From Candidatus Magasanikbacteria bacterium RIFOXYC2_FULL_42_28 (GTDB taxonomy: Bacteria; Patescibacteriota; Patescibacteriia; Magasanikbacterales; GWA2-37-8): a stretch of DNA of 64,000 nucleotides. Below the pieces are notes generated by a model that saw nothing but the letters and a program-made list of their open reading frames with translations, did no database searches and had not been told where the DNA came from. Numbering within the stretch: the stretch's first letter is position 1; every line of letters begins with the position of its first letter. Shown piece after piece: positions 25,648 to 60,215 of this stretch. Both the position numbers and the translations under genes were made by a program. The stretch spans positions 220,742 to 284,741 of the forward strand of contig MFQZ01000001.1 in NCBI GenBank assembly GCA_001784435.1, given 5' to 3'.

Positions 25648-25680
25648 GACAGAGATCCCGATTTTCATCGGGATGACAGA
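25648..25680. repeat. Family A hairpin repeat, intergenic copy.
   Basis: AGACAGAGATCCCGATTTTCATCGGGATGACAGA. Confidence 0.85.
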
Positions 25681-35022: not shown

Positions 35023-35033
35023 ATGTTTAAATT

Positions 35034-35144
35034 TGTCATCCCGATGCGCCCGAGTGTAGCGACAAGTGCCCTTGGGGTGAAAATCGGGATCTCTGTCAGT
35101 TATCCCATTGGATAGGGATCCCGAATCAGGTTCGGGATGACAGT
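35034..35144. repeat. Long form of the family A element (two linked hairpins) between tsf and rpsB.
   Basis: TGTCATCCCGATGCGCCCGAGTGTAGCGACAAGTGCCCTTGGGGTGAAAATCGGGATCTCTGTCAG...GGATAGGGATCCCGAATCAGGTTCGGGATGACAG. Confidence 0.8.
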
Positions 35145-37770: not shown

Positions 37771-38746
37771 ATTTTTTTTGAATTTAGGGCAAATAAAAAA
37801 TTCTTGGAGCGATAAAATTCCGGCTTTGGATTTGGATTTGATTTTGGCTGATGCGATAAACCAACCGAGAGAATTTATAATCACCCATCCGGAATTTCGC
37901 CCAAACCCGTGGCAACTTCTAAAAATTTATATTAATTTGTCACGCCGAAACAACGACGTGCCTATCGCCTACATAACAGGCCACAAAGAATTTTTTGGCC
38001 TTGATTTTTTTGTTAATAAAAATGTCTTAGTGCCACGACCAGATACGGAAATACTCGTCGAAACGGCAATATCGCTAATATCCAATATCTTTAAATCGCA
38101 AAACTTATCTGTCATTCCGACGGCGAAGGAGGAATCTCTATCCGGTTCGCCACATCCAATAACACTCATCGACGTCGGCACCGGCTCCGGCTGTATTCCA
38201 ATCGCGATAAATAAAACACTGCAACAATTAAACACTGCAACAAACAAACAGACCGGCATCACAACCCACGCGATTGATATCTCGCATCGCGCACTTAGAG
38301 TCGTCAAAAAAAATGCCAAAAAACATAACGTAAAAATAAATTTTCACCAAGGCAATTTGATTGAGCCAATCGCAAAATCTTCAATCTTCAGTCTTCAATC
38401 TTCGCTCATCATCACCGCCAATCTCCCCTACCTCACTCAATCGCAATTTGATAATGAACAGTCAATAAAAAAAGAGCCGAAACTGGCTCTAGTCGCGGAT
38501 AATCAAAACGGACTATCCCTCTACGAAAAATTACTCACACAGTTAAAATCTTCAATCTTCAATCTTCAATCTTCCATTACGCTACTCCTCGAAATCGACC
38601 CCAGCCAAACCACTGACATTCGTACACTCGTAAAAAACATCTTCCCATCTGCCCAAATAGAAATCAAAAAAGATTTGGCCGGACTTGATCGCGTGGTAAT
38701 AATTCAATTGATCACTTCAACCACCACCTCCCACGGCACAATTTGA
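37757..38746 (+). CDS. prmC: Release factor glutamine methyltransferase (PrmC/HemK) with three in-frame repeat insertions.
   Basis: [17 protein letters not shown] motif and the NLPY substrate motif ([10 protein letters not shown]). Inserts translate to [26 protein letters not shown] and [10 protein letters not shown]. Confidence 0.85.
38109..38154. repeat. Short family B element in frame in prmC.
   Basis: CTGTCATTCCGACGGCGAAGGAGGAATCTCTATCC. Confidence 0.8.
38375..38404. repeat. Tandem heptamer repeat (AATCTTC, about 4 copies) in frame in prmC.
   Basis: AAAATCTTCAATCTTCAGTCTTCAATCTTC. A second block lies at 38546-38574. Confidence 0.8.
38546..38574. repeat. Second tandem AATCTTC heptamer block in frame in prmC.
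   Basis: AAATCTTCAATCTTCAATCTTCAATCTTCC. Confidence 0.8.
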
Positions 38747-41256: not shown

Positions 41257-42576
41257 TTATTTATTATCTTTAATCTTTCGCTTTTCACGTTGAAATTTAA
41301 TGGCAAACCGATGGGCTTCATCGCGCACTTTAATTAAAACCTCTAAATTTTTTTGCGCCCATTTAGGTACGGGCATGTCTTGTATTTTAGCATTAGTGCC
41401 GACCACCACCAAATCATTGCGCTTCCGTTTTGCGCCTTTGGCAATACCCACAACCGGAATATCTATTTTCAAATTATTTAACACTGATTTTACCGCGTTC
41501 ACCTGGGGCACGCCGCCATCAATTAAAAATACAGCTGGCATCGGCCACTCGCTATGTTTCAATCGGCGCGACAAAACTTCCTTTAAACAATCAACATCGC
41601 TTTGGCCAACCACGGTTTTAATATTAAATTTGCGATAATCGGTTTTAGACGGCACACCACCTTTAAATACTACCATACTCCCAACCTTGCCAGTAGCGCC
41701 CAAATTGGAAATATCATAACCTTCAATCCGCATCTCACCGCTCTGCCCGGACGGATCAATGGTAAAACTTTTATTCAAAAGCGCGATATCCTGAATTCTA
41801 TTTAACGCTTTAATTTGATTTCGCAATCTCCCCGCTTCTTCAAAATTTTCCACGCGCGATGCTTGAACCATTTTTGTATTCAAGCTCCGCAGAAGCGATT
41901 TTTTTTGGCCACTTAAAAATAATTTCAAAGGATTGATAACTTTCTGACGATATTCAGCTGGCGTGATTCCCCCATCGCAAACGCCCAAACACAAACCAAT
42001 CTGCCGATAAAAACACGGACGCGTTTGCCCGGGCGAACAAGTAGAATACAAAAATAAACTCCGCAAAATTTTCAAAGTCGCCGCCGTATTTAATCCTGGG
42101 TACGGGCCAAACACGTTTTTCCTTCCCCTGCCCGAGGGGAGGGCGAGGGTGAGGTGGGAGCGGGCGCCGTTTTTTGTCATTCCGAGCGAAGCTCGCGCCG
42201 ACGAGGAATCTCCATCCAACTCATGCTGTCGCACCACCAAAACCTTCGGAAATTTATCCTTTGTAACCACCAAATAATTCCAACTTTTATCATCTCTCCA
42301 ATCAACATTATACTTCGGCTGTTTTTCCTTAATATATTTCCCCTCCAAAATAATCGCCTCCAAAACCGAATCTGTCACTTCTACTTTTATATCCACGACT
42401 TCATGCATCATTTGTTCGATTGGGCGACTACTGCGCGCGCCCCGAAAATACGACCGCACCCGTGAACGCAAACTCGTTGCCTTGCCAACATAAATTAATT
42501 CTTTTTTTGAATTATAAAATAGATATACGCCGGGTGCATCGGGTAATTTTTTTAATTTTTTCTGGATATCTAACAT
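41257..42576 (-). CDS. uvrC: Excinuclease ABC subunit C. Short form lacking the C-terminal HhH region. Carries an in-frame repeat insertion.
   Basis: GIY-YIG N-terminus (GVYLFYNSKKELIYVGKATSLRSRV). An RNase H-like/EndoV-like domain (GYDISNLGATGKVGSMVVFKGG). Insertion translates to ...SSARASLGMT...LALPSGRGRK. Confidence 0.85.
   Translation of the reverse strand: MLDIQKKLKKLPDAPGVYLFYNSKKELIYVGKATSLRSRVRSYFRGARSSRPIEQMMHEVVDIKVEVTDSVLEAIILEGKYIKEKQPKYNVDWRDDKSWNYLVVTKDKFPKVLVVRQHELDGDSSSARASLGMTKNGARSHLTLALPSGRGRKNVFGPYPGLNTAATLKILRSLFLYSTCSPGQTRPCFYRQIGLCLGVCDGGITPAEYRQKVINPLKLFLSGQKKSLLRSLNTKMVQASRVENFEEAGRLRNQIKALNRIQDIALLNKSFTIDPSGQSGEMRIEGYDISNLGATGKVGSMVVFKGGVPSKTDYRKFNIKTVVGQSDVDCLKEVLSRRLKHSEWPMPAVFLIDGGVPQVNAVKSVLNNLKIDIPVVGIAKGAKRKRNDLVVVGTNAKIQDMPVPKWAQKNLEVLIKVRDEAHRFAIKFQREKRKIKDNK
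42121..42222. repeat. Composite insertion in uvrC: a family C G-rich element (CCCCTGCCCGAGGGGAGGGCGAGGGTGAGG) followed by a family B short element.
   Basis: Family C copies are also at 45647-45686, 57254-57297 and 59931-59970. Confidence 0.8.
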
Positions 42577-42937: not shown

Positions 42938-45589
42938 CTATATAACTCTTTTTAAATAAGCCCCCGTAAAACTCGCCGCCTTTTTCGCCACCTCCTCCGG
43001 CGTCCCCACCGCCACCACCTGCCCGCCCTTATCGCCCCCTTCCGGCCCCAAATCAATCACCCAATCCGCCGCTTTTATTATATCCAAATTATGCTCAATT
43101 ACCAAAATCGTATTTCCTTGCGATACCAAACGCTGTAAAACTTCTAATAACTTCCGCACATCATCGTAATGCAAACCGGTCGTCGGCTCATCTAACAAAT
43201 ACAAAGTTTTCGTCGTGCCATAACGCGCCAACTCCCGTGACAATTTAATTCGTTGCGCTTCCCCACCCGACAAAGTCGTGGCCGATTGCCCCAAAGTTAA
43301 ATAATCCAAACCCACTTCGTTTAAAATTTTCAACTTGTCATAAATCATCGGAATATCGCGGAAAAATTCCTCGGCGTCTTCAATCGTCATTGCCAAGACC
43401 TCGGCAATATTTTTTCCGTTATAACTCACAGCCAATGTCTCATTCGTAAACCGCAAACCCTTACACACATCACAAGTCACTTCCACACTCGGCAAAAAAT
43501 GCATTTCAATTTCCAGCACGCCTTTGCCCTCGCAATTTTCGCACCGGCCGGCATTTTTGACATTAAAACTAAACCGCGAAGCCGTGTACCCCCGCATGCG
43601 CGCCTCGGCCGTTTCGGCAAACAACGCCCGAATATGGTCAAAACATTTGGTATAAGTCGCCGGGTTACTGCGCGAAGTCCGACCAATGGACGACTGGTCA
43701 ATCGTTATCACACCATCCAAATATTCCAAGCCGGAAACTTCCAAACAATTTTCCAATTTCTTTTTCTGGCGAAATATTTTGTTCATGACAGCCGGCCGCA
43801 AAACTTCATTCATCAAAGTTGACTTACCCGAACCCGACACGCCGGTCAAACAGACAAACCGGCGCAACGGAATTTCCACATTAATATTTTTTAAATTATG
43901 CAAATTCGCTTTTTTAATTTTTAATTTCGGCGTCGCGCGATCAACCTCACGCCGTTTCAATGGCATGGGAATAGTTACTTCGCCACGCAGATACTTGCCG
44001 GTTAAAGAACTGCTTTTGTGTTTCGCTGACAGCAAATCTTTCACCGTGCCAGAATACACAATCTCGCCCCCATGCTTCCCCGCCCCGGGACCAATATCCA
44101 CAATCCAATCACTCACCTTAATTGTATCCTCGTCGTGTTCTACTACTATTATCGTATTTCCCGCATCGCACAACGCCCGCAAAGTTTTCACCAACCGGTC
44201 ATTATCACGTTGATGCAAACCAATTGTCGGCTCATCCAATACATACAACGCCCCCACAAGGCGCGTCCCCACCTGCGACGCCAGTCGTATCCGTTGCGCT
44301 TCCCCGCCCGACAAAGTCCCGGCCTTACGATTCAAAGTTAAATAATGCAACCCCACGTCATACATAAACTGCAATCGATTTTGAATTTCTTTCAAAACCA
44401 TTCCGCAAATTTGCATCGTACGTTCAGGCAAATCTAATTCCAACGCCGCGAAAAACTCGCGCGCCTCACTAATAGACAAATTCGTAATTTCCCAAATATT
44501 TTTCCCGCCAATTTTTACGCTTAGCGCGTTAACATTCAAACGCTTACCCAAACACACCGGGCAATCTTCCACTGAAAATAATTCTTTCGTGCCAAGCCCA
44601 GTACACGCCTCGCAATATCCATACGGACTATTAAACGAAAAAAGTCGTGGCTCAATTTCCGGAAAACTAAAACCATCTTTCGGACAAGAATACAAAGTAG
44701 AGAATGTCTGTTCTTCGCCGTCCGCATAGATCACAGCGCACAACCCCTTAGACAAATTCACCGCCGCCTCCACCGCTTCGGCAAGTCGTTGGTTATCTGT
44801 CATCCCGAGCGAGCCCTTAAGGGGCGACGAGGGATCTCCATCCGCCGGTAATTGGGATAGAGATTTCTCCTTCGTCGTCGAAATGACAGCGAGTGGCACT
44901 CGATCAACCACCACCTCAATCGTATGCTTAAAATTCTTTTCCAAAATTATCCGCTCGCGCAAACTTTTTATTTTCCCATCCACCCGCACTTCCAAATACC
45001 CAGAATTATACAAATCATAAAGCATCTGATAATACTCCCCCTTCCTGCCTCGCACCACCGGCGACAAAACAACAATCTCTTTACTGTCATTTCGAGCGAG
45101 GCCTTTTGGCCGACGAGAAATCTTCGCGTCTTCGTCCGTCACTTTGGAAATTGGAAATTGGAAATTGGAAATTCTCGCACCCATCTCATCCACCGTCATC
45201 TTCTCAATCTTACTCCCACAATCCGGACAATGTGGCACCCCCACACGCGCAAAAAGAACCCGCAAATAATCATAAATTTCCGTAATCGTCGCCACGGTCG
45301 AACGCGGATTCGCACTATGCGCCTTTTGATCAATCGAAATCGCCGGCGACAACCCTTCAATTTCATCCACATCCGGCTTTTGCATCCCACCCAAAAACTG
45401 CCGAGCGTAAGCCGACAATGACTCAATATACCGCCTCTGCCCCTCGGCAAAAATCGTATCAAACGCCAAAGAAGACTTGCCCGATCCCGACAACCCCGTA
45501 AAAACAATCATCTGATTGCGAGGCAACTCCAAATTAACATTTTTCAAATTGTGTTCGCGTGCGCCTTTGATAATAATTTTGTTTTGCAT
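42938..45589 (-). CDS. uvrA: Excinuclease ABC subunit A with at least two in-frame repeat insertions.
   Basis: Tandem ABC ATPase modules (GLSGSGKSSLAF...; GVSGSGKSTL), zinc-finger Cys clusters and ABC signature motifs. Confidence 0.92.
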   Translation of the reverse strand: MQNKIIIKGAREHNLKNVNLELPRNQMIVFTGLSGSGKSSLAFDTIFAEGQRRYIESLSAYARQFLGGMQKPDVDEIEGLSPAISIDQKAHSANPRSTVATITEIYDYLRVLFARVGVPHCPDCGSKIEKMTVDEMGARISNFQFPISKVTDEDAKISRRPKGLARNDSKEIVVLSPVVRGRKGEYYQMLYDLYNSGYLEVRVDGKIKSLRERIILEKNFKHTIEVVVDRVPLAVISTTKEKSLSQLPADGDPSSPLKGSLGMTDNQRLAEAVEAAVNLSKGLCAVIYADGEEQTFSTLYSCPKDGFSFPEIEPRLFSFNSPYGYCEACTGLGTKELFSVEDCPVCLGKRLNVNALSVKIGGKNIWEITNLSISEAREFFAALELDLPERTMQICGMVLKEIQNRLQFMYDVGLHYLTLNRKAGTLSGGEAQRIRLASQVGTRLVGALYVLDEPTIGLHQRDNDRLVKTLRALCDAGNTIIVVEHDEDTIKVSDWIVDIGPGAGKHGGEIVYSGTVKDLLSAKHKSSSLTGKYLRGEVTIPMPLKRREVDRATPKLKIKKANLHNLKNINVEIPLRRFVCLTGVSGSGKSTLMNEVLRPAVMNKIFRQKKKLENCLEVSGLEYLDGVITIDQSSIGRTSRSNPATYTKCFDHIRALFAETAEARMRGYTASRFSFNVKNAGRCENCEGKGVLEIEMHFLPSVEVTCDVCKGLRFTNETLAVSYNGKNIAEVLAMTIEDAEEFFRDIPMIYDKLKILNEVGLDYLTLGQSATTLSGGEAQRIKLSRELARYGTTKTLYLLDEPTTGLHYDDVRKLLEVLQRLVSQGNTILVIEHNLDIIKAADWVIDLGPEGGDKGGQVVAVGTPEEVAKKAASFTGAYLKRVI
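44797..44890. repeat. Full-length family B palindromic element in frame in uvrA.
   Basis: Near-identical to 4325-4446 (argS). It translates to DGDPSSPLKGSLGMT. Confidence 0.85.
45084..45180. repeat. Family B variant plus a family E (GGAAATTGGAAATTGGAAATT) repeat in frame in uvrA.
   Basis: CTGTCATTTCGAGCGAGGCCTTTTGGCCGACGAGAAATCTTCGCGTCTTCGTCCGTCACTTTGGAAATTGGAAATTGGAAATTGGAAATTC. Confidence 0.8.
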
Positions 45590-45600
45590 ACATTACAATA

Positions 45601-45686
45601 TTGTCATCCCGATGAAAATCGGGATCTCTGTCCAACGTTCACTCAATTTTCCCCTCCTTTTCAAGGAGGGGCGAGGGGGTGGTTAT
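45601..45686. repeat. Family A hairpin plus family C G-rich element upstream of uvrA.
   Basis: TTGTCATCCCGATGAAAATCGGGATCTCTGTCC ... CCCCTCCTTTTCAAGGAGGGGCGAGGGGGTGGTT. Confidence 0.8.
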
Positions 45687-45834
45687 CACCAAACGCCAAA
45701 ATGACCCAAAAGTGGGTCGCAATATATAAGTTGGAATAAAAGAACTACCTATACCATACCAATTTTGTCTTAAAAAGTCAATTGACCGTATGGTGAATTT
45801 AAGGTAAAATTAAGTAAACTTATTATATATTATT

Positions 45835-46362
45835 ATGTCTGAATCAATAAACAATAATATATCCTTTAAACCGCTTTCTGCTGTTGATCTTCCACTCACC
45901 CACAAGTGGCTTACTTCATCACATGTTAAAGAAGGATATGGTCACGGCAAACAAACAATCGCGGACATAGAAAAGAAATATATTCCGCGAATCAACGGCG
46001 AAACACCCACATCCTGTTTTATTATTTTTTATGATAATGCGCCCATCGGACAAATTCAAATGTATAAAATAAATGATTATCCCGATTACAAAAAAATAAT
46101 TCAAATCGATCAAAGCGCCGCCGGTATTGATTTGTTTATCGGAGAGAAAGATTTTCAACACAAAGGTCTCGGCAGTGTCATTATCCAAAAATTTTTAAAA
46201 GATTTTGTATTTAAAAAATTAAATGTTGAGAGTTGCATCATCGGACCAAACCCAAACAACATCGCCGCAATTAAAGCATACGAAAAAGCGGGGTTTAAAT
46301 ATTTAAAAACGATAATCAATCCGGATGGTGAAGATGAATATTTAATGGAAAAAGAAAAATAA
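45835..46362 (+). CDS. GNAT-family N-acetyltransferase resembling aminoglycoside 6'-N-acetyltransferase AAC(6')-Ib-type enzymes.
   Basis: WLTSSHVKEGYG...IAAIKAYEKAGFKYLKTIINPDGEDEYLMEKE parallels the AAC(6')-Ib blocks WLNRSHIVEWWG and AIRCYEKAGFERQGTVTTPDGPAVYMVQ, recalled from memory. Confidence 0.6.
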   Translation: MSESINNNISFKPLSAVDLPLTHKWLTSSHVKEGYGHGKQTIADIEKKYIPRINGETPTSCFIIFYDNAPIGQIQMYKINDYPDYKKIIQIDQSAAGIDLFIGEKDFQHKGLGSVIIQKFLKDFVFKKLNVESCIIGPNPNNIAAIKAYEKAGFKYLKTIINPDGEDEYLMEKEK

Positions 46363-46387
46363 TTCTATAAAAATCTAACAACCAAAA

Positions 46388-47008
46388 ATGCAAAACTTCG
46401 CCCTAATCGGCACAATCCTATCCATCCACGTCATGGCCTGGCTCACACCCGGCCCTCTTTTTGTATTGATAATCCGAAATTCTCTCGTTTATTCGCGAAA
46501 GATCGGCTTTTGGACTGCGCTCGGATTTGCTCTAGGCAATTTTATCCATATTACACTCGCCGTTTTTGGGATCTCGCTTATTATCCAAAGTTCGCCACTC
46601 GCATTCAGCACTGTCAAATTTTTAGGCGCTGGCTATCTAATATATTTGGGTATCAAAACCTTACTGATGAAAATTAGAACGCAGAAAACCGATACGCCCA
46701 CTGAACACGATAACATCACGGTGCCCCAAGCAATAAAAATTGGCTTCTTAACCAACATCTTAAGCGCGGGCGCATATTTATTCTTCGCCAGCATTTTTGC
46801 CACCGTGTTATCAACGGCTACTTCATCATGGGTAGTGGCAATATTAGCAATTGCGATGCCACTAAATACTTTTGTTATGGCCTCAATTTTATCCCTATTT
46901 TTTACCCACCACAAAATTAAATCAATATATATCAAATTCCAATATATTTTAAATAAATGTTTGGGCGTGGCACTAATATTATTCGCCTTAACAATTGCTT
47001 TTAAATAA
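46388..47008 (+). CDS. LysE/RhtB-family amino-acid (or small-metabolite) exporter.
   Basis: Six TM helices. N-terminal LTPGPLFVLII motif typical of the LysE superfamily. Confidence 0.75.
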   Translation: MQNFALIGTILSIHVMAWLTPGPLFVLIIRNSLVYSRKIGFWTALGFALGNFIHITLAVFGISLIIQSSPLAFSTVKFLGAGYLIYLGIKTLLMKIRTQKTDTPTEHDNITVPQAIKIGFLTNILSAGAYLFFASIFATVLSTATSSWVVAILAIAMPLNTFVMASILSLFFTHHKIKSIYIKFQYILNKCLGVALILFALTIAFK

Positions 47009-47429
47009 TAAATTTATTACCGCTTCTAAACAAATTTACGTCCACCCCGAACATACCGAACATGCTTTTGATTTGCCTTTTTGGCGAGACAACGAAAAAC
47101 TATGGGCTCTCAAAGTTCCGGTGGAAGAAATAAATATCAGCGAATTACTGTGGATTTTTGATATTCCATTTTGGGAAGATGTCGATGGTAACATTGTAAT
47201 TACTCCTAACGAAGTTATTAATAACCCAGATCAATTTATAGAACACTACAACAAAATTCAGGCCACAGACACTTCTTATCCGATTGACATAATGAAAAAC
47301 AAAAAGGGAAAATGGCTAACTTTGGACGGGCTACACCGATTGGTAAAATTATTTTTAAATAAGAAAACGAAAATTCGCGTCCGAAAAATTCCACCTGAAT
47401 TAATCCACCTTACGGCACGAGACGAATAA
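46995..47429 (+). CDS. ParB/Srx-fold (ParB-like nuclease domain) small protein.
   Basis: PIDIMKNKKGKWLTLDGLHRLVKLFLNKKTKIRVRKI matches the ParB N-terminal-domain pattern (..g.y.liDGhHRl.A......I.v). Confidence 0.5.
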   Translation: MLLNNKFITASKQIYVHPEHTEHAFDLPFWRDNEKLWALKVPVEEINISELLWIFDIPFWEDVDGNIVITPNEVINNPDQFIEHYNKIQATDTSYPIDIMKNKKGKWLTLDGLHRLVKLFLNKKTKIRVRKIPPELIHLTARDE

Positions 47430-47445
47430 ATTAAAGAAATCAAAT

Positions 47446-47886
47446 ATGAACGGCATCGTTATCACGACAATAAAAAACCAAGACGAAATCGAATTCCTGC
47501 GTGGCCGGCAATCATTTGAATATACTTATAACGATGAAACCATTGATTCACTTAAAAAACATTTTGACCCGGAAAACAGTTTATATTTGCTCGCAAAAAA
47601 AGGAAGTGAATTTGCAGCTTTTTGTTCGATTGATAGAGGCTGGTGGGAAGAAAATATCTTTTTCATTCGTGAAATTTTAGTAGACCAGAATTTTCAAAAA
47701 CTTGGAATAGGAGAAAAATTAATGCAAAAATGTATAGAATACGCCAAAAGTAAAGGCACAATTGGAGTAGTCACAGAAACTGATTTTAAAAATAAACCGA
47801 TGCAAGGATTGTGCAAAAAACTCGGCTTCAAAGAATGGAATAACCCCCAGTGGAAAAATGGTATTGCTTATAGATTAATATTTTGA
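47446..47886 (+). CDS. GNAT-family acetyltransferase.
   Basis: Q/R-x-x-G-x-G/A-like region VDQNFQKLGIGEKLMQKCIEYAK and a C-terminal LGFKE motif. Confidence 0.65.
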   Translation: MNGIVITTIKNQDEIEFLRGRQSFEYTYNDETIDSLKKHFDPENSLYLLAKKGSEFAAFCSIDRGWWEENIFFIREILVDQNFQKLGIGEKLMQKCIEYAKSKGTIGVVTETDFKNKPMQGLCKKLGFKEWNNPQWKNGIAYRLIF

Positions 47887-47889
47887 CCC

Positions 47890-48363
47890 ATGCCCAAAAT
47901 AATCGTAATCCGCGGCCCACTCGGCGTTGGCAAAACCACGGTCGCCAAAATTTTAGCGCAAAAACTTGACGCTCAATATTTATCGTTGGACAAAATTTTG
48001 GATGATAATGATTTAGCGCCCGCGGACGGAATTCCGATTGAAAATTTTTTAAAAGCCAACGAAATAATTTTGGATTTAGTTGGGCAAAGTAATGAAACTT
48101 TTATAATTGACGGCTGTTTTTACTACCAAGAACAAATTGACGACTTGCAAAAAAAATTTAACGACCAAGTGGTATTTTTTACACTCATGAGTACGGTGGA
48201 AAAATGTATTGAGAGAGATGCCAAACGTGAAAAAATTTACGGCGAGGATTCGGCTCGGTATGTGTATGATATTACCAGTAAAATTCATACTGGCCAGGAA
48301 ATTGATAATACTAATTTGACCGCGAAAGAAACGGTGGACAAAATAATGAAGTATTTAAAATAA
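47890..48363 (+). CDS. Small P-loop kinase (AAA_33/TmrB-like).
   Basis: Walker A GPLGVGKTT. 157 aa. Resembles TmrB and chloramphenicol-phosphotransferase-like small kinases. Confidence 0.55.
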   Translation: MPKIIVIRGPLGVGKTTVAKILAQKLDAQYLSLDKILDDNDLAPADGIPIENFLKANEIILDLVGQSNETFIIDGCFYYQEQIDDLQKKFNDQVVFFTLMSTVEKCIERDAKREKIYGEDSARYVYDITSKIHTGQEIDNTNLTAKETVDKIMKYLK

Positions 48364-48367
48364 AATT

Positions 48368-49084
48368 ATGGACAATCCCACTATTCAATCATCGGCTACT
48401 GCCTTTGCCAGAAAAAATAGAAAAAGAATCGCGAAGGAACGAACGGACAAAAATAAATATCAACCGGACGAAACGCCGGTCTCGGTATTTATGGCCGGAT
48501 CCCCTGGCGCCGGAAAAACTGAATTTTCTAAAAACATCATCTCCATTCTTGAGAAAGGCAGAAAACACCAGGTAATCCGAATTGATGGCGACGACATCCG
48601 CCACGAACTACCTGGATATACTGGCAACAATTCCTATTTATTTCAAAGCGCCATATCATTGATTGTGGAAAAAATTCATGACTTTGTTTTAACACAAAAA
48701 CAAAGTTTCGTCCTAGACGGAACTTTTTCAAAACATACCAAAGCCGCTGAAAATATTAAACGTTCTTTAGACAAAGGACGCGGGGTGTTTATTTTCTATG
48801 TCTATCAACATCCAGCCACCGCTTGGAAATTTACGGAAAAACGCGAACAAGCCGAGGGACGCAATATACCAAAAGAATCATTTATTGAACAATTTATCGG
48901 GGCCAAGGAAACGATAAACCAAATTATAGAAAAATTTGGTGAAAAAGTGACTGTTTTTCTTGTAAAAAAGGACTATGAAAAAAATACAGTCGAAGAAGTT
49001 GTAAAAATAGAACCAAACGACCAGCCGATTGACGAATATATCAAAGAACGGTATAATAAAGAAGACCTAGAAAAAATGATATGA
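48368..49084 (+). CDS. Zeta-toxin-family P-loop kinase (PezT/zeta-like).
   Basis: AGSPGAGKT ... IRIDGDDIRHELPGY ... FVLDGTFSKH parallels the zeta toxin pattern GGQSGAGKT ... IIDGDSFRSQHPHY ... LLIEGTLR. Confidence 0.65.
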   Translation: MDNPTIQSSATAFARKNRKRIAKERTDKNKYQPDETPVSVFMAGSPGAGKTEFSKNIISILEKGRKHQVIRIDGDDIRHELPGYTGNNSYLFQSAISLIVEKIHDFVLTQKQSFVLDGTFSKHTKAAENIKRSLDKGRGVFIFYVYQHPATAWKFTEKREQAEGRNIPKESFIEQFIGAKETINQIIEKFGEKVTVFLVKKDYEKNTVEEVVKIEPNDQPIDEYIKERYNKEDLEKMI

Positions 49085-49266
49085 GTATATTTAGTTTTTT
49101 TGCGGCAACAAAAGAAAAACAAAAAACCGGCGAATTCGCCAGATTCTTTTTGCACGCTTCTGAAAAAGAAAAAAAGCAAGTATTCAAAGACGCGGCCAGA
49201 CGAGCAAACGAAGACCAACGCGCACTCGTTAAAAACGTCAAAGAACTTCAACATAAGGCCACCTGA
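49081..49266 (+). CDS. Small K/E-rich helical protein translationally coupled to the zeta-like kinase. Candidate partner or antitoxin.
   Basis: Start overlaps the kinase stop (ATGA). 61 aa. A terminator hairpin immediately downstream overlaps its stop codon. Confidence 0.45.
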   Translation: MSIFSFFAATKEKQKTGEFARFFLHASEKEKKQVFKDAARRANEDQRALVKNVKELQHKAT

Positions 49267-49283
49267 CAAGGTGGCCTTTCTTG
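49255..49283 (+). terminator. Rho-independent terminator.
   Basis: AAGGCCACC-TGACAA-GGTGGCCTT followed by TCTTGAT. Confidence 0.75.
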
Positions 49284-49309
49284 ATATTATATACGGATAA
49301 AAAAATAAC

Positions 49310-49693
49310 ATGCTTTTCAAAACCGTCAATCACGTCGCCATTATCGCCTCCGATTTGGAAATTTCCAGAAATTTTTACATTGGCAAACTTGGTTTTAAAT
49401 TAATTAAAACAATTGACCGGTCAGAAAGACAATCAACGATTTTATATTTAGACGCGGGAAACATTATAATTGAATTAATGTCTTTCCCCAATCCCCCAAA
49501 ACGCCCGGCCTGGCCAGAAGCTTGCGGTTTGCGACACTTAGCATTTGATGTGGAAAATTTTGATGAAATGATAACGAAATTAAACGAGCTTGGTATCACG
49601 ACCGAACAACCTCGCGTTGACGCGCGCACGGGAAAAAGATTGACTTTTTTTAATGATCCGGATAATTTACCGCTGGAAATTTGTGAGATGTAA
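49310..49693 (+). CDS. VOC-family protein (glyoxalase/bleomycin-resistance fold).
   Basis: VNHVAIIASDLEISRNFYIGKLGFKLI N-terminal beta-alpha-beta-beta-beta module. 127 aa. Confidence 0.7.
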   Translation: MLFKTVNHVAIIASDLEISRNFYIGKLGFKLIKTIDRSERQSTILYLDAGNIIIELMSFPNPPKRPAWPEACGLRHLAFDVENFDEMITKLNELGITTEQPRVDARTGKRLTFFNDPDNLPLEICEM

Positions 49694-49697
49694 TTTT

Positions 49698-50330
49698 ATG
49701 AAAAAACTTAAATGGATATTACCAATATTAATCTTCACGACTCTCGCTATCATTTGGCTTGCCGATTTTAAAATTGAACACGCTACCAATGATTTAACAT
49801 ATAATGACGCCACCGAAATCCCCCACAACAAAGTCGGCCTACTTTTAGGAACCACAAAATACGCCCCATCCGGACAATTAAACGGCTACTTTGTTTACCG
49901 CATCCAAGCGGCCGTTGACTTGTTTAATAACCAAAAAATTGATAACATTGTGATTAGTGGCGATAACGGCACCAAAAAATATAACGAGCCGGAGGATATG
50001 AAAAATGAATTAGTGGCGCGTGGCATTCCGGAGAACAAAATATATTTGGACTACGCCGGTTTTCGGACTTATGATTCGGTCGTGCGATTAAATAAAATTT
50101 TTGGCCAAGATAAATTTACGATTATATCCCAAGAATTTCACAACCGGCGCGCAATATATATCGCCCAAGCCAAAAATTTAGAAGCCGTCGGGTATAACGC
50201 GAAAGATATCAATACTTACCGCGGATTGCGGACAAAATTGCGCGAAAAATTAGCGCGCGTCAAGGTATTTATTGATCTACTGACAAATAAACAACCAAAA
50301 TTTTTAGGCGAAGAAATTGAAATAAAATAA
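49698..50330 (+). CDS. SanA/YdcF-family (DUF218) membrane-anchored protein.
   Basis: N-terminal TM anchor, then NIVISGDNGTKKYNEPEDMKNELVARGIPENKIYLDYAGFRTYDSVVR, the DUF218 core. Confidence 0.65.
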   Translation: MKKLKWILPILIFTTLAIIWLADFKIEHATNDLTYNDATEIPHNKVGLLLGTTKYAPSGQLNGYFVYRIQAAVDLFNNQKIDNIVISGDNGTKKYNEPEDMKNELVARGIPENKIYLDYAGFRTYDSVVRLNKIFGQDKFTIISQEFHNRRAIYIAQAKNLEAVGYNAKDINTYRGLRTKLREKLARVKVFIDLLTNKQPKFLGEEIEIK

Positions 50331-50380: not shown

Positions 50381-51004
50381 TTAGATCCCGTAAGTAAACA
50401 AGCTAATCAACGCGAAACCAATCGCGAACCCAAACAGCCAAAAAGCGACCGCAAATAACAATGGGAAATCCAACAAAAGCGCGAGCAAAACCAAAAATGT
50501 CGCCACCACTTGTAGCCACATTTTTATTTTCCCCCAAACATTCGCCATCCGCGTAATGTGAAAATATTGATGCGAAATATACGCGGCGATAATAAACAAA
50601 ATTTCTACGACCAAAATTGTCAAACCCAACCAATCGGGAAAATAACGAAACACCAAAAGCAAAACCATTGAACCGATCAATAGTTTATCGGCCAAAGGAT
50701 CAAATAATTTGCCAAAATCGGTAATTTGACCACGCATCCGCGCCATTGAGCCATCCATGGCATCGGTAAAAGCGGTTAAAATAAACAGAGTCGCGCCCCA
50801 AGCGTAATGATTGAACAACACCAACAAAAATACCGGCGGAGTCATAATTATGCGCAAAACCGTTAAGCGGTTGGGGGTGACGCTCGGTGGCAGATAACGC
50901 AATAAATACCGATACAAAAAAACATCGTGAACATGGCGTTCAGTTGATTTTTGATAAACAAACAGATCGTCGTGATGATTTTTGAAATTATCAATCCATT
51001 CCAT
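50381..51004 (-). CDS. pgsA: CDP-alcohol phosphatidyltransferase (PgsA-like).
   Basis: DAMDGSMARMRGQITDFGKLFDPLADK matches the D-G-x2-A-R-x8-G-x3-D-x3-D motif. Multi-TM protein. Confidence 0.75.
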   Translation of the reverse strand: MEWIDNFKNHHDDLFVYQKSTERHVHDVFLYRYLLRYLPPSVTPNRLTVLRIIMTPPVFLLVLFNHYAWGATLFILTAFTDAMDGSMARMRGQITDFGKLFDPLADKLLIGSMVLLLVFRYFPDWLGLTILVVEILFIIAAYISHQYFHITRMANVWGKIKMWLQVVATFLVLLALLLDFPLLFAVAFWLFGFAIGFALISLFTYGI

Positions 51005-51024: not shown

Positions 51025-53079
51025 TTATAGACGTTTCTTCAATTCTCCAATCTCATCCCGCAAAATCGCGGCCAATTCAAATTCCAATTCTTTGGCGGCT
51101 TTGCGCATTTCCATTTCTTTTTCTTTGATTATTTCCGGCAAGGGCCGCGTGTCGCCTTTTAGGTCTAATTCCAAAATTTTCTTGGCCCTACTGTGCCCGC
51201 GTTTGCCCGCGCCCGCCGTCCGCGTCAAACCAAACTCACTTAAAATATCGCGAATATTTTTTTGAATGGTTTTGGGCGTGATATTATGTTTTTTGTTATA
51301 GGCAATTTGCACGGTTCGCCGCCGATCAGTTTCCGACAACGCGCGTTTAATTGAACCGGTGATACTGTCGGCATACAGCACTACTTGGCCATTGACATTG
51401 CGCGCCGCCCGGCCGATAGTTTGAATTAAACTCGTTTCAGAACGCAAAAACCCTTCTTTGTCCGCATCCAAAATAGCCACCAGCGACACCTCGGGCAAAT
51501 CCAAACCCTCGCGCAACAAATTCACCCCGACAATCACATCAATTTTCCCGCGCCGCAGATCAGTAATAATTTCAATACGTTCCAAAGTATCAATTTCACT
51601 GTGAAGATACTTTACTTTCACACCTTTTTTCAACAAATAATCATTTAAATCCTCGGCCATTTTTTTGGTGAGCGTCGTGACCAAAACGCGCTCATTAATT
51701 TTTACGCGCTCGTCGATACGAATAATTAAATCATCAATTTGAGACAAGCCACTCTCGCTATTTTTGATTTTTGATATTTTATTTTTGATATTTCCCCCCG
51801 TCACCGGCCTAATAATCACCTCCGGATCAATCAACCCCGTCGGACGCACAATTTGTTCCACCACTTGTTCACTTTCTTTAATTTCAAACACCGACGGCGT
51901 GGCCGAAACAAAAATCATTTTGTTCACGCGCTTTTCAAATTCCGGATAAGTAAGCGGACGATTGTCGCGCGCTGACGGCAATCTAAACCCATGCTCAATC
52001 AAAGTGTTTTTACGCGCCCGATCGCCATTAAACATTCCGCCGATTTGCGGAATAGTAACATGCGATTCATCCACCACTGTTAAAAAATCCTTATCGCACT
52101 CGCGAAAATAATCCAACAAAGTAAACGGCGCGTCCCCAACAGCGCGCCCATCAAAATATCGCGAATAATTTTCAATCCCACTGCAATAACCAATATTTTT
52201 TATCATCTCCAAATCATAACGCGTCCGGCGTTTTAGACGTTCGTGTTCCAAAACTTTGCCTGCGTCTTCAAAATATTTTAATTGATCTTCCAAATCACTG
52301 CGAATTTGCGCAAAAGCCCGTTCGGTATCTGACGGCGATGCTACATAATGTTTGGTGGAATACAGCCAAACCTCACTCGCATCGCGCACCACTTTTCGCG
52401 TTACCACATCCAAAATTTCCACACGCGCAATTTTATCCGAAATTTCTAAACGATAAATTTTTTCTTCATGCGCCGGCACAATTTCTAATACGGGACCTCG
52501 CAAACGAAATTGTCCGCGCGCCAAATCCCCATTCGTCCGTTCAAATTGCAAATCCACTAATTTTCGCACAACACCATTGCGATCAATTTTCTGTCCCAAT
52601 TCCAACCGCAAAGCCGAACGCAAATATTCCGTGGGTGAGCCCAGACTGTAAATCGCCGACACGGACGAAACCACAATCACATCTTTGCGCGACAGTAACG
52701 CCTGCGTGCACGCATGACGCAAACGATCAATTTCTTGGTTAATCATCGCCTCTTTTTCAATATAGGTGTCTGAACCCGGCATATATGCCTCGGGCTGGTA
52801 ATAATCATAATAAGAAACAAAATATTCCACGGCGCTACCCGGAAAAAATTCGCGGAATTCATTACACAACTGCGCGGCCAAAGTTTTGTTGTGCGCCATT
52901 ACCAAAGTCGGCAACTGCGTTTTTTCAATGACGTTGGCAATCGTAAAAGTTTTGCCCGAACCCGTTACACCCAACAATGTCTGTCGACTCATACCCGAAT
53001 CCAAACCAGCGGTTAATTTCTTAATCGCTTGTGGTTGGTCGCCGGCCGGCTTCATTTTTGTTTTAAGTTTAAATTTCAT
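51025..53079 (-). CDS. uvrB: Excinuclease ABC subunit B.
   Basis: MKFKLKTKMKPAGDQPQAIKKL N-terminus, GVTGSGKTFT Walker A, helicase motifs, and a C-terminal UVR domain (AKELEFELAAILRDEIGELKK). The listed ORF extends to 53175 through the upstream repeat. The start at 53079 is more plausible. Confidence 0.9.
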   Translation of the reverse strand: MKFKLKTKMKPAGDQPQAIKKLTAGLDSGMSRQTLLGVTGSGKTFTIANVIEKTQLPTLVMAHNKTLAAQLCNEFREFFPGSAVEYFVSYYDYYQPEAYMPGSDTYIEKEAMINQEIDRLRHACTQALLSRKDVIVVSSVSAIYSLGSPTEYLRSALRLELGQKIDRNGVVRKLVDLQFERTNGDLARGQFRLRGPVLEIVPAHEEKIYRLEISDKIARVEILDVVTRKVVRDASEVWLYSTKHYVASPSDTERAFAQIRSDLEDQLKYFEDAGKVLEHERLKRRTRYDLEMIKNIGYCSGIENYSRYFDGRAVGDAPFTLLDYFRECDKDFLTVVDESHVTIPQIGGMFNGDRARKNTLIEHGFRLPSARDNRPLTYPEFEKRVNKMIFVSATPSVFEIKESEQVVEQIVRPTGLIDPEVIIRPVTGGNIKNKISKIKNSESGLSQIDDLIIRIDERVKINERVLVTTLTKKMAEDLNDYLLKKGVKVKYLHSEIDTLERIEIITDLRRGKIDVIVGVNLLREGLDLPEVSLVAILDADKEGFLRSETSLIQTIGRAARNVNGQVVLYADSITGSIKRALSETDRRRTVQIAYNKKHNITPKTIQKNIRDILSEFGLTRTAGAGKRGHSRAKKILELDLKGDTRPLPEIIKEKEMEMRKAAKELEFELAAILRDEIGELKKRL

Positions 53080-53140
53080 TTGATATTTGAATTTTGAAAT
53101 TGATTGGAAATTGGAAATTTGGATTTTGACATTATCACTA
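53080..53140. repeat. Family E repeat at the uvrB 5' end.
   Basis: TTTGAATTTTGAAATTGATTGGAAATTGGAAATTTGGATTTTGACATTATC. Confidence 0.75.
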
Positions 53141-54232
53141 ATATCTTCGCACCACCATACTCTCCACCATCCCAATCATCAACAAATTAACAATCAAAGA
53201 AGAACCACCATAAGACACAAACGGCAAGGTAACACCGGTAACCGGCAATAACCCTAAATTCGCCCCCACATTAACAATAAATTGCCCGAACAACGCCACG
53301 GCCACACCGGAAATAAAAACAGCGTAAAAGTCGTCGCCACTTGAAGCCGCCAAGCGCAACAAACGCCACAATAAAAATCCAAACAAGACAATCACGGCCG
53401 CCGCGCCGGCAAAACCCAATTCTTCGGCAATGGACGCGAAAATAAAATCGGTCTGCGCTTCTGGCAAAAATTTTAATTGCGACTGCGAACCAAAACCCAA
53501 GCCCCTCCCAAACAAACGTCCGGAACCAATGGCAATAGTGGCTTGGGCGGTATTATAACCGGCACCCAGCGGATCACGCGCCGGATCAATAAAAGTAAGC
53601 ACCCGATCTTTTTGATAAGGCGCGAGTAAAAAAAACCAAGTTGCCACGCCCACGCCCACTAACAAAATCAATAACCCCATAATATATGAACGACGCACAC
53701 CCACAAGTACCATTGTTCCAAACCAAATCATGCCGGCAATAACCGCTGATCCCAAATCCGGTTGGAATAAAATTAAAATCACCGCGCTACCGGTAATGAT
53801 AGCCGTACCAAAGAAAAATAACGGGCGTTCAAAGCGACGACCGAAATTAGCCACCACATAAGCCAAAATTAAAATCAAACCCAGTTTAGCCAATTCCACC
53901 GGTTGGAAACTAAAACCATAAAAAGTAAACCAACCGGTCGTACCGCGAATATTTTCGCCAAAAAAAAGCACGGCCAAAAGTAAAATTAAACAAAAACCAT
54001 AAAACCATTTAGCATAAGCGCGCCAAAAATTCGGCGCGGTCGCGCTTGCCCCAAAAAATAATACCAAACCAATCCCGACCGCCAACAATTGCCTTTTTAA
54101 TAAAACCAATTCCGTCCCCCGCGACAAGTCAATACTATAAATTGCCGTTAAGCCCACGGCCGAAAGCAAAAAAACAGCCAACGCGAGCGGCCAATCAAAA
54201 TTACGCCAAGAATATTTTGCAAAAAAACCCAT
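53138..54232 (-). CDS. ftsW: SEDS-family peptidoglycan glycosyltransferase (FtsW/RodA).
   Basis: About 10 TM helices. FQPVELAKLGLILILAYV and a C-terminal PFVSYGGSS motif typical of FtsW/RodA. Confidence 0.8.
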   Translation of the reverse strand: MGFFAKYSWRNFDWPLALAVFLLSAVGLTAIYSIDLSRGTELVLLKRQLLAVGIGLVLFFGASATAPNFWRAYAKWFYGFCLILLLAVLFFGENIRGTTGWFTFYGFSFQPVELAKLGLILILAYVVANFGRRFERPLFFFGTAIITGSAVILILFQPDLGSAVIAGMIWFGTMVLVGVRRSYIMGLLILLVGVGVATWFFLLAPYQKDRVLTFIDPARDPLGAGYNTAQATIAIGSGRLFGRGLGFGSQSQLKFLPEAQTDFIFASIAEELGFAGAAAVIVLFGFLLWRLLRLAASSGDDFYAVFISGVAVALFGQFIVNVGANLGLLPVTGVTLPFVSYGGSSLIVNLLMIGMVESMVVRRY

Positions 54233-58997: not shown

Positions 58998-60215
58998 TTA
59001 AATTATTAACATTGCATCCCCAAAACTATAAAAACGATATTTGGCTTTAATCGCTTCGGCGTAACATTTTAAAACAAACTCTCTGTCCCCGGCAAACGCG
59101 GACACAAGCATCAACAGTGTGGACTCGGGCAAATGAAAATTGGTGATAAGCGCGTCCACCACTTGAAATTTAAAACCGGGGGTAATAAAAATATTAATAT
59201 CGCCATCGTACGGCGTGACTTGTCCGTCAAATTTTTGCGCCACTCCTTCCAACGTCCGCACCGTTGTCGTGCCAACCGCTACCACGCGTCGGCCACTGGC
59301 CTTGGCCGCGTTAATTAACCCGGCATTTTTATCAGTAATTTCTACCCACTCGGCGTGCATTTTATGATCTTCAACTTTTTCGGTTTTAACTGGTAAAAAT
59401 GTCCCTAACCCAACATGCAAAGTAACTTCCGCAAACTCCACACCCTGTTTTTTCAATCGCTCAATCAATTCTTCAGTAAAGTGAAATCCGGCTGTCGGCG
59501 CGGCCACTGAACCTTCATATTTGGCATACACGGTCTGATACCGCTCTGCAACATACTCACTTGTCATCCCGAGCGAGGACTCCCGACTTAGTCGGGACGA
59601 GGGATCTCCACCAACAAATGATTGGGATAGAGATTCCTCCTTCGCCGTCGGAATGACAGAAATGTACGGTGGTGTCGGCACTTCGCCATATTTATTCGCC
59701 TTGGCGCGCACAATCGCGTCCGAATCATTAAACTGTAAATCCACCGTGCCATCATCATTTTTAAACATCACCTCGGCAAAAAAATCATCTGCAAAAACCA
59801 CCCTCATCCCCAAGCGCAATTTTTTTCCCGGCTTAGCGAGCGCCCGCCACACCCCCGGATTTTCCATCGGCCGCGTTAAAAATATTTCGACTTTCGGCGC
59901 GTTAAAAATTACATCAGTACACTCAAATTTCCCCGTCCTTTTCAAGGAGGGGGCGAGGGGGTGGTTCGGCACACCCGCGACCTCCTCATCCAACATTACC
60001 GTCCCGCGCAAGCGCGCCTTAAAAACTTTCGTATTATTCCACACCACCAAATCCCCAGCACGCAAATACTTACAAATTTCCGCAAACGAATTTTCATGCT
60101 GAAAAATCTTGCGTTCGCGATCAACCAACATTAACCGCGAAGAATCGCGTGGCGTTGCCGGCGTTTGCGCAATTAGTTCTTTTGGTAAATTATAATTAAA
60201 ATCCGAGGTGAGCAT
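58998..60215 (-). CDS. queA: S-adenosylmethionine:tRNA ribosyltransferase-isomerase with two in-frame repeat insertions.
   Basis: MLTSDFNYNLPKELIAQTPATPRDSSRLML N-terminus. About 60 aa longer than typical QueA. Inserts translate to GGDPSSRLSRESSLGMT and PTPPLPLKRTGKFECT. Confidence 0.88.
   Translation of the reverse strand: MLTSDFNYNLPKELIAQTPATPRDSSRLMLVDRERKIFQHENSFAEICKYLRAGDLVVWNNTKVFKARLRGTVMLDEEVAGVPNHPLAPSLKRTGKFECTDVIFNAPKVEIFLTRPMENPGVWRALAKPGKKLRLGMRVVFADDFFAEVMFKNDDGTVDLQFNDSDAIVRAKANKYGEVPTPPYISVIPTAKEESLSQSFVGGDPSSRLSRESSLGMTSEYVAERYQTVYAKYEGSVAAPTAGFHFTEELIERLKKQGVEFAEVTLHVGLGTFLPVKTEKVEDHKMHAEWVEITDKNAGLINAAKASGRRVVAVGTTTVRTLEGVAQKFDGQVTPYDGDINIFITPGFKFQVVDALITNFHLPESTLLMLVSAFAGDREFVLKCYAEAIKAKYRFYSFGDAMLII
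59562..59660. repeat. Full-length family B element in frame in queA.
   Basis: TTGTCATCCCGAGCGAGGACTCCCGACTTAGTCGGGACGAGGGATCTCCACC...GGGATAGAGATTCCTCCTTCGCCGTCGGAATGACAGA. Confidence 0.85.
59931..59970. repeat. Family C G-rich element (CCCCGTCCTTTTCAAGGAGGGGGCGAGGGGGTGGTT) in frame in queA.
   Basis: Near-identical to 45647-45686. Confidence 0.8.

Follow-up and report, generated by a model that had tools for sequence, protein, structure and literature searches.

An AAC(6')-like GNAT acetyltransferase gene in a block inserted at the uvr locus of a Candidatus Magasanikbacteria genome

In this work we describe a gene of Candidatus Magasanikbacteria bacterium RIFOXYC2_FULL_42_28, a groundwater member of the Candidate Phyla Radiation (CPR/Patescibacteria) with a genome assembled from a metagenome, which encodes a predicted acetyltransferase related to the aminoglycoside 6'-N-acetyltransferases, AAC(6'). 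The gene lies in a stretch of 64,000 nucleotides of contig MFQZ01000001.1 (the window), where it runs on the forward strand from the ATG at position 45835 to the end of the stop codon at 46362, and its 175-residue product is 100% identical to 'hypothetical protein A3J93_01800' of the same bacterium. Sequence comparison places this protein, hereafter the query, in the lineage of AAC(6')-Ib, -Ie and -Im, namely AAC(6') sub-family C (PMC5722643), within an environmental branch that is so far uncharacterised. We lean towards an aminoglycoside or aminocyclitol-type antibiotic as its most likely class of substrate; its regiochemistry and any resistance phenotype we only infer. The gene is the first of a small accessory block that was inserted horizontally between uvrB/pgsA and uvrA.

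Relationship to AAC(6')-Ib, -Ie and -Im

The gene is real; its coordinates, strand and 175-residue length are exactly those given by an earlier sequence-only reading of the window, and the gene and identical genes downstream of it are also present on independently assembled contigs. That reading had likened the product to AAC(6')-Ib, with a similarity to AAC(6') enzymes beyond that of GNAT proteins in general, and had allowed for either an enzyme of resistance or a related acetyltransferase of small molecules; the closest characterised relatives support this hedged view. The open reading frame (ORF) matches the Pfam family Acetyltransf_8 (PF13523) best, at 72.7 bits against a cut-off of 27, and the eleven top NCBIfam models are all AAC(6') families (AacA4/TIGR04431, 1e-24; the Ie family and set A, 1.6e-24 each; the Ib family, 9.8e-21), with the first non-AAC model, PseH, at 9e-9. 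When PDB sequences were searched with phmmer, the top five matches were to AAC(6')-Ie, Ib11, Ib and Im (Ie, 4.7e-23; Ib, 1e-21 to 3e-22; Im, 3.6e-19), and the sixth match fell to 1.5e-6. Similarly, a tblastn search of 72,556 plasmids matched 4,335 records, and the matches listed all lie under annotated aac(6') genes (identities of 36.7% for Ie, 30% for IIa and ~28% for Ib), except for one unannotated match in Rhizobium gallicum (H39) over which 67% of the query aligned.

Comparisons based on the family profile and on predicted structure gave the same ranking. A profile built from 69 family members retrieved Im, Ib and Ie from the PDB at 1e-35 to 1e-37, followed by the Legionella protein 3f5b, BH2621 and MbtK at 1e-18 to 1e-19. 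The AlphaFold2 model, computed on the family alignment (pLDDT 93.5, pTM 0.89), has the predicted fold of a GNAT protein, and its first nine Foldseek matches in the PDB are structures of AAC(6')-Im, -Ib and -Ie (TM 0.77-0.84, E 2e-12 to 2.5e-15), which outrank BH2621, SpeG and EryM; the next match after these nine is 2qml, at 1.6e-11. Rather than non-AAC GNAT proteins, AAC(6')-Ie, -Ib and -Im are thus the nearest characterised relatives by sequence, by profile and by predicted structure. In pairwise alignments the query shares 37% identity (91 bits) with Ie, 31% with Im and 28% (97 bits) with Ib, as compared with 28% (81 bits) between the verified enzymes Ib and Ie, so that by identity and bits its distance to the verified enzymes is no greater than the distance among them. 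Since Ib and Ie are themselves only 28% identical, distance alone does not exclude the query from sub-family C, to which these comparisons indicate that it is specifically related. The query is homologous to Ib, as the label 'AAC(6')-Ib-like' has it, and somewhat closer to AAC(6')-Ie.

Two of the three motif blocks that had been proposed as parallels with AAC(6')-Ib are in register with that enzyme in both HMMER and MAFFT alignments: the block WL..SH..E..G (query 25-WLTSSHVKEGYG-36, aligned to Ib WLNRSHIVEWWG) and the block AI..YEKAGF....PDG...Y (query 145-AIKAYEKAGFKYLKTIINPDGEDEYLM-171, aligned to Ib AIRCYEKAGFERQGTVTTPDGPAVYMV). The third, 'IDQS..G', was misplaced; query I91-D-Q-S-A-A-G97 does not align to the 'GIDQS/L' of Ib, the true counterpart of which is G97-I-D99-L-F, seven residues downstream. 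Among 285 family members Asp fills the D99 column in 284, but the D92 column varies.

The functional residues of the query follow those of the verified enzymes in most positions. Its Q108-H-K-G111-L-G113 segment (codons 46156..46173, forward strand) has the form of the GNAT motif that binds the pyrophosphate of acetyl-coenzyme A (acetyl-CoA), Q/R-x-x-G-x-G/A, and G111 and G113 are invariant in our alignment A1. Tyr35 (codon 45937..45939, forward strand), at a position that is aromatic in 273 of the 285 members, aligns with Trp49 of Ib and with the tyrosine of Ie and Im, Tyr34, that is stacked against ring A of the aminoglycoside. Asp99 (codon GAT, 46129..46131, forward strand) aligns with a conserved Asp by which N6' is oriented or deprotonated; this is Asp99 in Ie/Im and, in Ib, Asp115, for which the number Asp105 is also in use (PMC5722643 for both roles). 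Furthermore, Q75 and Y77 of the Q-x-Y motif are kept in 271 and 255 of the 285 members, respectively, and the query retains Y49 and an acidic residue at position 84; D99, Q75, Y77, Y49 and D84 are equivalent to Asp115, Gln91, Tyr93, Tyr65 and Asp100 of Ib, whose numbering and roles partly follow PMC8471502.

The highest identities are with AAC(6')-Ie, the N-terminal domain of AAC(6')-Ie/APH(2'')-Ia (4QC6), and AAC(6')-Im (6BFF/6BFH), in alignments that extend over the full length and with the same predicted fold. Besides Asp99, the tyrosine at 34 (35 in the query), Q-x-Y, the acidic residue at 84/85 and the CoA motif, the query has the C-terminal helix 'AI(K/R)AY(E/Q)K(A/S)GF' in common with these enzymes, and the fusion of Ie to an APH domain recurs in some relatives of the query. 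With the AAC(6')-Ib/AacA4 family, including AAC(6')-IIa (1V0C, 2BUE, 2VQY, 2PRB), identity is 28-30% over the full length. The full list of Ib contacts, together with the remaining Ib numbering and roles, we take to be that of Vetting et al. 2008. The encoded protein is probably a functional acetyl-CoA-dependent N-acetyltransferase, and it is probably monomeric.

Candidate substrates of the Gly137 branch

Under the explanation that we favour, acetyl-CoA would bind at the Q108-x-x-G111-x-G113 motif and a cationic amine substrate would occupy the pocket stacked on Tyr35, with Asp99 orienting or deprotonating the primary amine of the substrate so that it attacks the thioester directly. The likely role of such an enzyme would be self-protection or detoxification. 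Its binding mode would probably be unlike that of the clinical enzymes, because a glycine, Gly137, replaces the Asp that anchors the aminoglycoside in those enzymes.

A number of observations weigh against an aminoglycoside substrate, and this substitution is one of them. Gly137 (codon GGA, 46243..46245, forward strand) stands at the position of Asp136 in Ie/Im and Asp152 in Ib, which hydrogen-bonds the aminoglycoside from the beta-5/alpha-4 side (residue roles from PMC5722643). The position is Gly in 50 of 57 close homologs and Asp in 17 of 18 distant ones; across the 285 family members Gly (132) and Asp (117) predominate, and all four verified references have Asp. The glycine is a signature of the query's sub-clade. 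In addition, Lys86/Lys87 replace Trp102/Trp103 of Ib at the edge of the pocket, Tyr82 replaces Ser98 of Ib, Ile53 replaces Trp54 of Ie/Im, and the 'ELY' insertion of Ie/Im (the Tyr79/Glu81 region) is missing. With 22 acidic and 22 basic residues the query has a net charge of 0 and an isoelectric point (pI) of 6.9, as compared with 4.66-5.22 for the references (5.2 for Ie/Im) and a family median of 5.9. No curated AAC(6') cut-off is reached, at 87 bits against 260-450; for the four NCBIfam models entered in the cut-off test (TIGR04431, NF033693, NF012165 and NF033074) the scores were 87.1 against 260, 87.0 against 340 (the Ie family), 86.6 against 280 and 74.2 against 400, those of the Ib side spanning 74-87 bits against 260-400. 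Unlike the Ib genes, the query gene is neither integron- nor plasmid-borne, and the idea that the inserted block is a resistance cassette was rejected, given that its other genes do not form one.

The wider family points in the same direction. An exhaustive search of 1.84 billion cluster representatives (clusters at 50% identity) returned 2,459 clusters with E <= 1e-3, among them 88 with E <= 1e-30. Of all these clusters, at least 150 (the top 150 all above 106 bits) are nearer to the query than any verified AAC(6'), with no characterised member among them. In a neighbour-joining tree of 285 domains with 100 bootstraps, a single method giving moderate support, Ib, IIa, Ie and Im fall within a 39-member group in which position 137 is Asp throughout, and the deepest split separates the query from all four verified enzymes in 73 of 100 bootstraps. 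By this tree the query thus lies outside the clade that the verified enzymes span.

The evidence that does most to bring aminoglycosides back into consideration comes from domain fusions, which we surveyed in the 20 multidomain relatives that branch on the same side of the tree as the query. Clear APH domains are present in three, with best curated matches to APH(3') for P0125 and P0154 and to APH(2'') for P0217, and an ANT(4')-I-like KNTase domain in a fourth, P0179; the GNAT domains of these four are 36-42% identical to the query. A further relative that has Gly137 and is 46% identical to the query, P0093, carries a weak APH-like domain. At position 137 the four APH- and ANT-fused relatives have T, S, C and T, and loss of the Asp is therefore compatible with an aminoglycoside-modifying setting. 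The argument that a protein lacking Asp137 is not an aminoglycoside enzyme is weakened accordingly, and the Asp may not be indispensable. By association, these fusions favour aminoglycoside-like substrates, short of proof, and it is mainly because of them that we rank such a substrate above another amine. The remaining fusions, to NUDIX (two), VanZ, DinB-like, HAD and DUF952 domains, a second GNAT domain and domains of unknown function, do not point to aminoglycosides and belong with the opposing evidence.

Members of the family occur in CPR bacteria, Chloroflexota, Acidobacteriota, Myxococcota, Bacillota and Actinomycetota. The homologs in Paceibacter and Nomurabacteria are 62% and 67% identical to the query, and others at 39-51% come from Blastocatellia, Thermomicrobiales/Nitrolancea, 'delta proteobacteria', Symbiobacterium, Rubrobacterales and one metagenome-assembled genome (MAG) of Bathyarchaeia. 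The last of these (L045:3175-3669, 39% identical) is either a cross-domain transfer or a binning contaminant. The Nomurabacteria homolog, P0011 (L013:1142-1942), has 266 residues, of which ~90 form an N-terminal extension with the look of two or three transmembrane helices. This variant may be anchored in a membrane, or its start codon may have been miscalled. In the five relatives' neighbourhoods examined the neighbouring genes differ each time, as they would around a stand-alone accessory gene, and an inference from a conserved operon was set aside, since no partner recurs in the five and they offer no clue to the substrate besides repeated NUDIX genes. This NUDIX association is recurrent, being seen both in the GNAT-NUDIX fusions P0094 and P0132 and in the three NUDIX genes that flank P0011 (L013:79-2361). 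It might reflect a substrate linked to a nucleotide, or no more than gene clusters for 'house-cleaning'.

Among alternatives to an aminoglycoside or aminocyclitol, an acetyltransferase for some other small-molecule amine (a polyamine, an amino sugar or nucleotide sugar, or another antibiotic or metabolite), which shares its ancestry with AAC(6') sub-family C and in which the Gly137 clade is a functionally distinct branch, is a serious possibility to which we give appreciable but lesser weight. The absence of the anchoring Asp in the query and the other Gly137 members, the paired lysines and neutral pI, the position outside the verified clade and below every curated cut-off, the NUDIX fusions and flanking genes, and the sheer size of an environmental family whose hosts have no obvious aminoglycoside exposure are all readily accommodated by such an enzyme. 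It accounts less well for the APH(3')-, APH(2'')- and ANT(4')-like fusions on the query's own side of the tree, which likewise lack Asp137, and polyamine acetyltransferases (SpeG) are far more distant from the family (1e-9 or weaker by profile, ~1e-10 to 1e-11 by structure), while sub-family C enzymes acetylate aminoglycosides only (PMC5722643). A more speculative proposal, which we consider rather unlikely as it stands, is that the Gly137 branch, distributed over CPR bacteria, Chloroflexota, Acidobacteriota, Myxococcota and others, forms a functionally distinct class, having either a new mode of aminoglycoside binding that dispenses with the anchoring Asp or a switch to a different cationic substrate.

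Two further enzyme classes appear much less probable. A RimJ/RimL-type acetyltransferase of protein N-termini or ribosomal proteins would be surprising, even though the Joint Genome Institute (JGI) names many homologs 'RimJ/RimL family protein N-acetyltransferase' and the query also matches Pfam Acetyltransf_3 at 42 bits. JGI labels other homologs 'aminoglycoside 6'-N-acetyltransferase', and because homologs carry both labels we regard these names as automatic; moreover, the NCBIfam rimI model gives 21.6 bits against a cut-off of 86.4, no RimJ/RimL model was matched, and no such structure is among the top sequence or fold matches, the archaeal N-alpha-acetyltransferases reaching only 1e-5 to 1e-6. 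An N-acyltransferase of a siderophore pathway, suggested by the fact that Acetyltransf_8 also holds IucB-, MbtK- and DfoC-type enzymes and by the presence of MbtK/EryM, DfoC and Rv1347c among the weaker PDB matches, is the least probable of all. By profile MbtK (2.6e-18) and DfoC (5e-11) stand against 1e-37 for AAC(6'), a difference we put at 16 or more orders of magnitude, synthetase, monooxygenase and transporter genes of such a pathway are absent from the inserted block and from the five relatives' neighbourhoods, and CPR genomes are small, with the gene behaving as a stand-alone.

The inserted block and its surroundings

The block occupies 45835..50330 on the forward strand and consists of tightly spaced genes of lower GC content. 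To its left lie uvrA (42938..45589), divergent from the AAC-like gene, and uvrC (41257-42576), and to its right a pgsA-like gene (50381-51004), which is placed between the block and uvrB (51025..53175), all four on the reverse strand. In a sample of 80 metagenomic loci with UvrA proteins 57-74% identical to that of the window (74% being the closest UvrA in the metagenome collection), uvrB is directly upstream of uvrA on the same strand in 49 loci, often by 8-260 bp, and uvrC follows uvrA in 53, as compared with a uvrB-uvrA gap of 5.4 kb in the window. Homologs were sought for seven block genes, those of the AAC-like protein, the LysE exporter, the 144-residue ORF, the second GNAT, the P-loop kinase, the zeta-like kinase and the glyoxalase, and none was found within 10 kb of uvrA in any of the 80 loci. 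Given the adjacency of uvrB and uvrA in 49 loci and the block genes in none, the block is an insertion into a conserved uvrB-uvrA-uvrC array.

Base composition agrees with this. The block has a GC content of 0.355-0.39 and its flanks one of 0.43-0.47, and GC content at third codon positions (GC3) is 0.368 in the block against 0.420 in the rest of the window (Mann-Whitney p = 0.015), a modest signal; the AAC-like ORF itself has a GC3 of 0.312, as low as that of a few other genes in the window. The suggestion in the sequence-only reading that the gene was acquired horizontally, for which GC3 had been named as a check, is supported by the interrupted uvrB-uvrA synteny, the lower GC3 and the patchy distribution across phyla. 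The gene entered the genome with the inserted block. As to the means of insertion, the window contains no tRNA, the block has no integrase or transposase domain, and the borders of the block show only short AT-rich chance repeats and no convincing flanking repeats.

Downstream of the AAC-like gene, and all on the forward strand, the block encodes a LysE exporter (46388-47008), an ORF of 144 residues (46995-47429), a second GNAT protein (47446-47886), a P-loop kinase (47890-48363), a zeta-toxin-like kinase (48368-49084; Zeta_toxin domain, 137.6 bits), an ORF of 61 residues belonging to no family (49081-49266), a YaeR-family glyoxalase-like protein (49310-49693) and a SanA/DUF218 protein (49698-50330). 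A promoter-like site (TTGACC-17 nt-TAAAAT, 45782..45810, forward strand), which agrees with the consensus at 10 of 12 positions and is recognised by that match only, ends 25 bp 5' of the AAC-like ATG, and a terminator-like hairpin with a 10-bp stem (49255..49278, forward strand; a pattern match only) at the end of the 61-residue ORF suggests a first transcription unit of 45835-49266.

Closer inspection of these products does not turn the block into a recognised system. The glyoxalase-like protein belongs to the YaeR/SMU1112c family (153 bits against a cut-off of 140) rather than to the Fos or bleomycin-resistance proteins, and the DUF218 protein is SanA-like. Among NCBIfam models the P-loop kinase comes closest to the Gar/GrdA gentamicin-resistance ATP-binding protein, but its 37.7 bits fall far short of the cut-off, 170. 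Its PDB matches are generic and adenylate-kinase-like, and it probably acts as a generic kinase of small molecules or nucleotides. An anti-phage defence system was also considered and rejected, as PADLOC gives only weak P-loop matches. By sequence, no solved structure is related to the zeta-like kinase. There is no recognisable epsilon-type antitoxin upstream of this kinase, and the 61-residue ORF overlaps its stop codon by 4 bp. For the 144-residue ORF no Pfam, NCBIfam or PADLOC match was obtained; it contains a 'DGLHRL' motif, reminiscent of ParB/sulfiredoxin-fold proteins.

A structured RNA or riboswitch in the 245-bp region upstream of the AAC-like gene was considered and rejected, as no Rfam family reaches its gathering score in the window; the hairpins present in that region are part of a dispersed family of short palindromic elements, of which the window contains at least 10 copies, full or partial. 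Copies are located at 45596-45700, 44789-44863, 45077-45145, 59553-59633, 59910-59972, 3089-3120, 4325-4389, 18542-18574, 25648-25678, 35033-35097, 38120-38143 and 42199-42217, with cores such as GGAGATCCCTCGTC...CTCGCTCGGGATGACA and CCCCTCCTT-GAAA-AGGAGGGG. Some are intergenic and others lie in frame within genes, encoding SLSQLPADGDPSSPLKGSLGMT in uvrA and SLSQSFVGGDPSSRLSRESSLGMT and NHPLAPSLKRTGKFECT in a queA-like gene. When UvrA is aligned with 15 homologs, its palindrome-encoded segments prove to be inserted in hypervariable loops; at the same site a comparable insert, 'GDPS..GMT', is seen in one relative (L094). This pattern resembles that of the Rickettsia palindromic elements, and a non-exhaustive literature search found no report of such elements for CPR bacteria; they may be of more interest than the AAC-like gene itself. 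Two Logan contigs, L001 and L002, which are independent short-read assemblies of the same organism, both start at ~45606, 229 bp upstream of the AAC-like gene. The break point coincides with the palindromic copy upstream of uvrA and was probably caused by this repeat during assembly, not by a junction that varies between strains. Elsewhere in the window, the reverse strand of 25750-33948 carries an ORF of 2,732 residues with a GC content at second codon positions of 0.509, unusually high compared with other genes in the window.

Significance among aac-like genes of CPR bacteria

A previous survey (Maatouk et al. 2021, mSystems, PMC8651080) examined 4,062 genomes of CPR bacteria and counted 1,831 aac hits; these 'aac-like' genes are mostly 20-40% identical to known resistance genes, with many annotated as hypothetical. 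The query fits that description and is an instance of a pattern already catalogued. The survey contains no analysis of clade structure, residues, fusions or synteny and no aminoglycoside assays. New in the present analysis are the exact lineage, the Gly137 clade signature, the evidence from APH and ANT fusions, and the insertion between uvrB and uvrA. In its annotation, 'hypothetical protein' could give way to 'AAC(6')-like GNAT family N-acetyltransferase'.

Whichever substrate the enzyme has, the find is of modest practical consequence. If the enzyme does not acetylate aminoglycosides, it would be of use as a negative example for those resistome surveys in which 'aac-like' matches at 20-40% identity are counted as resistance genes. 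If it does, curated models with cut-offs of 260-450 bits miss a large environmental branch, extending to ultra-small CPR bacteria, of the clinically most important AAC(6') lineage, and Asp136/Asp152 would be dispensable. Should the Gly137 branch prove to have a new mode of aminoglycoside binding, it would constitute a reservoir of resistance enzymes in the environment that has gone unrecognised and that every curated model misses, and the protein described here would be the first candidate aminoglycoside-inactivating enzyme of a CPR bacterium.

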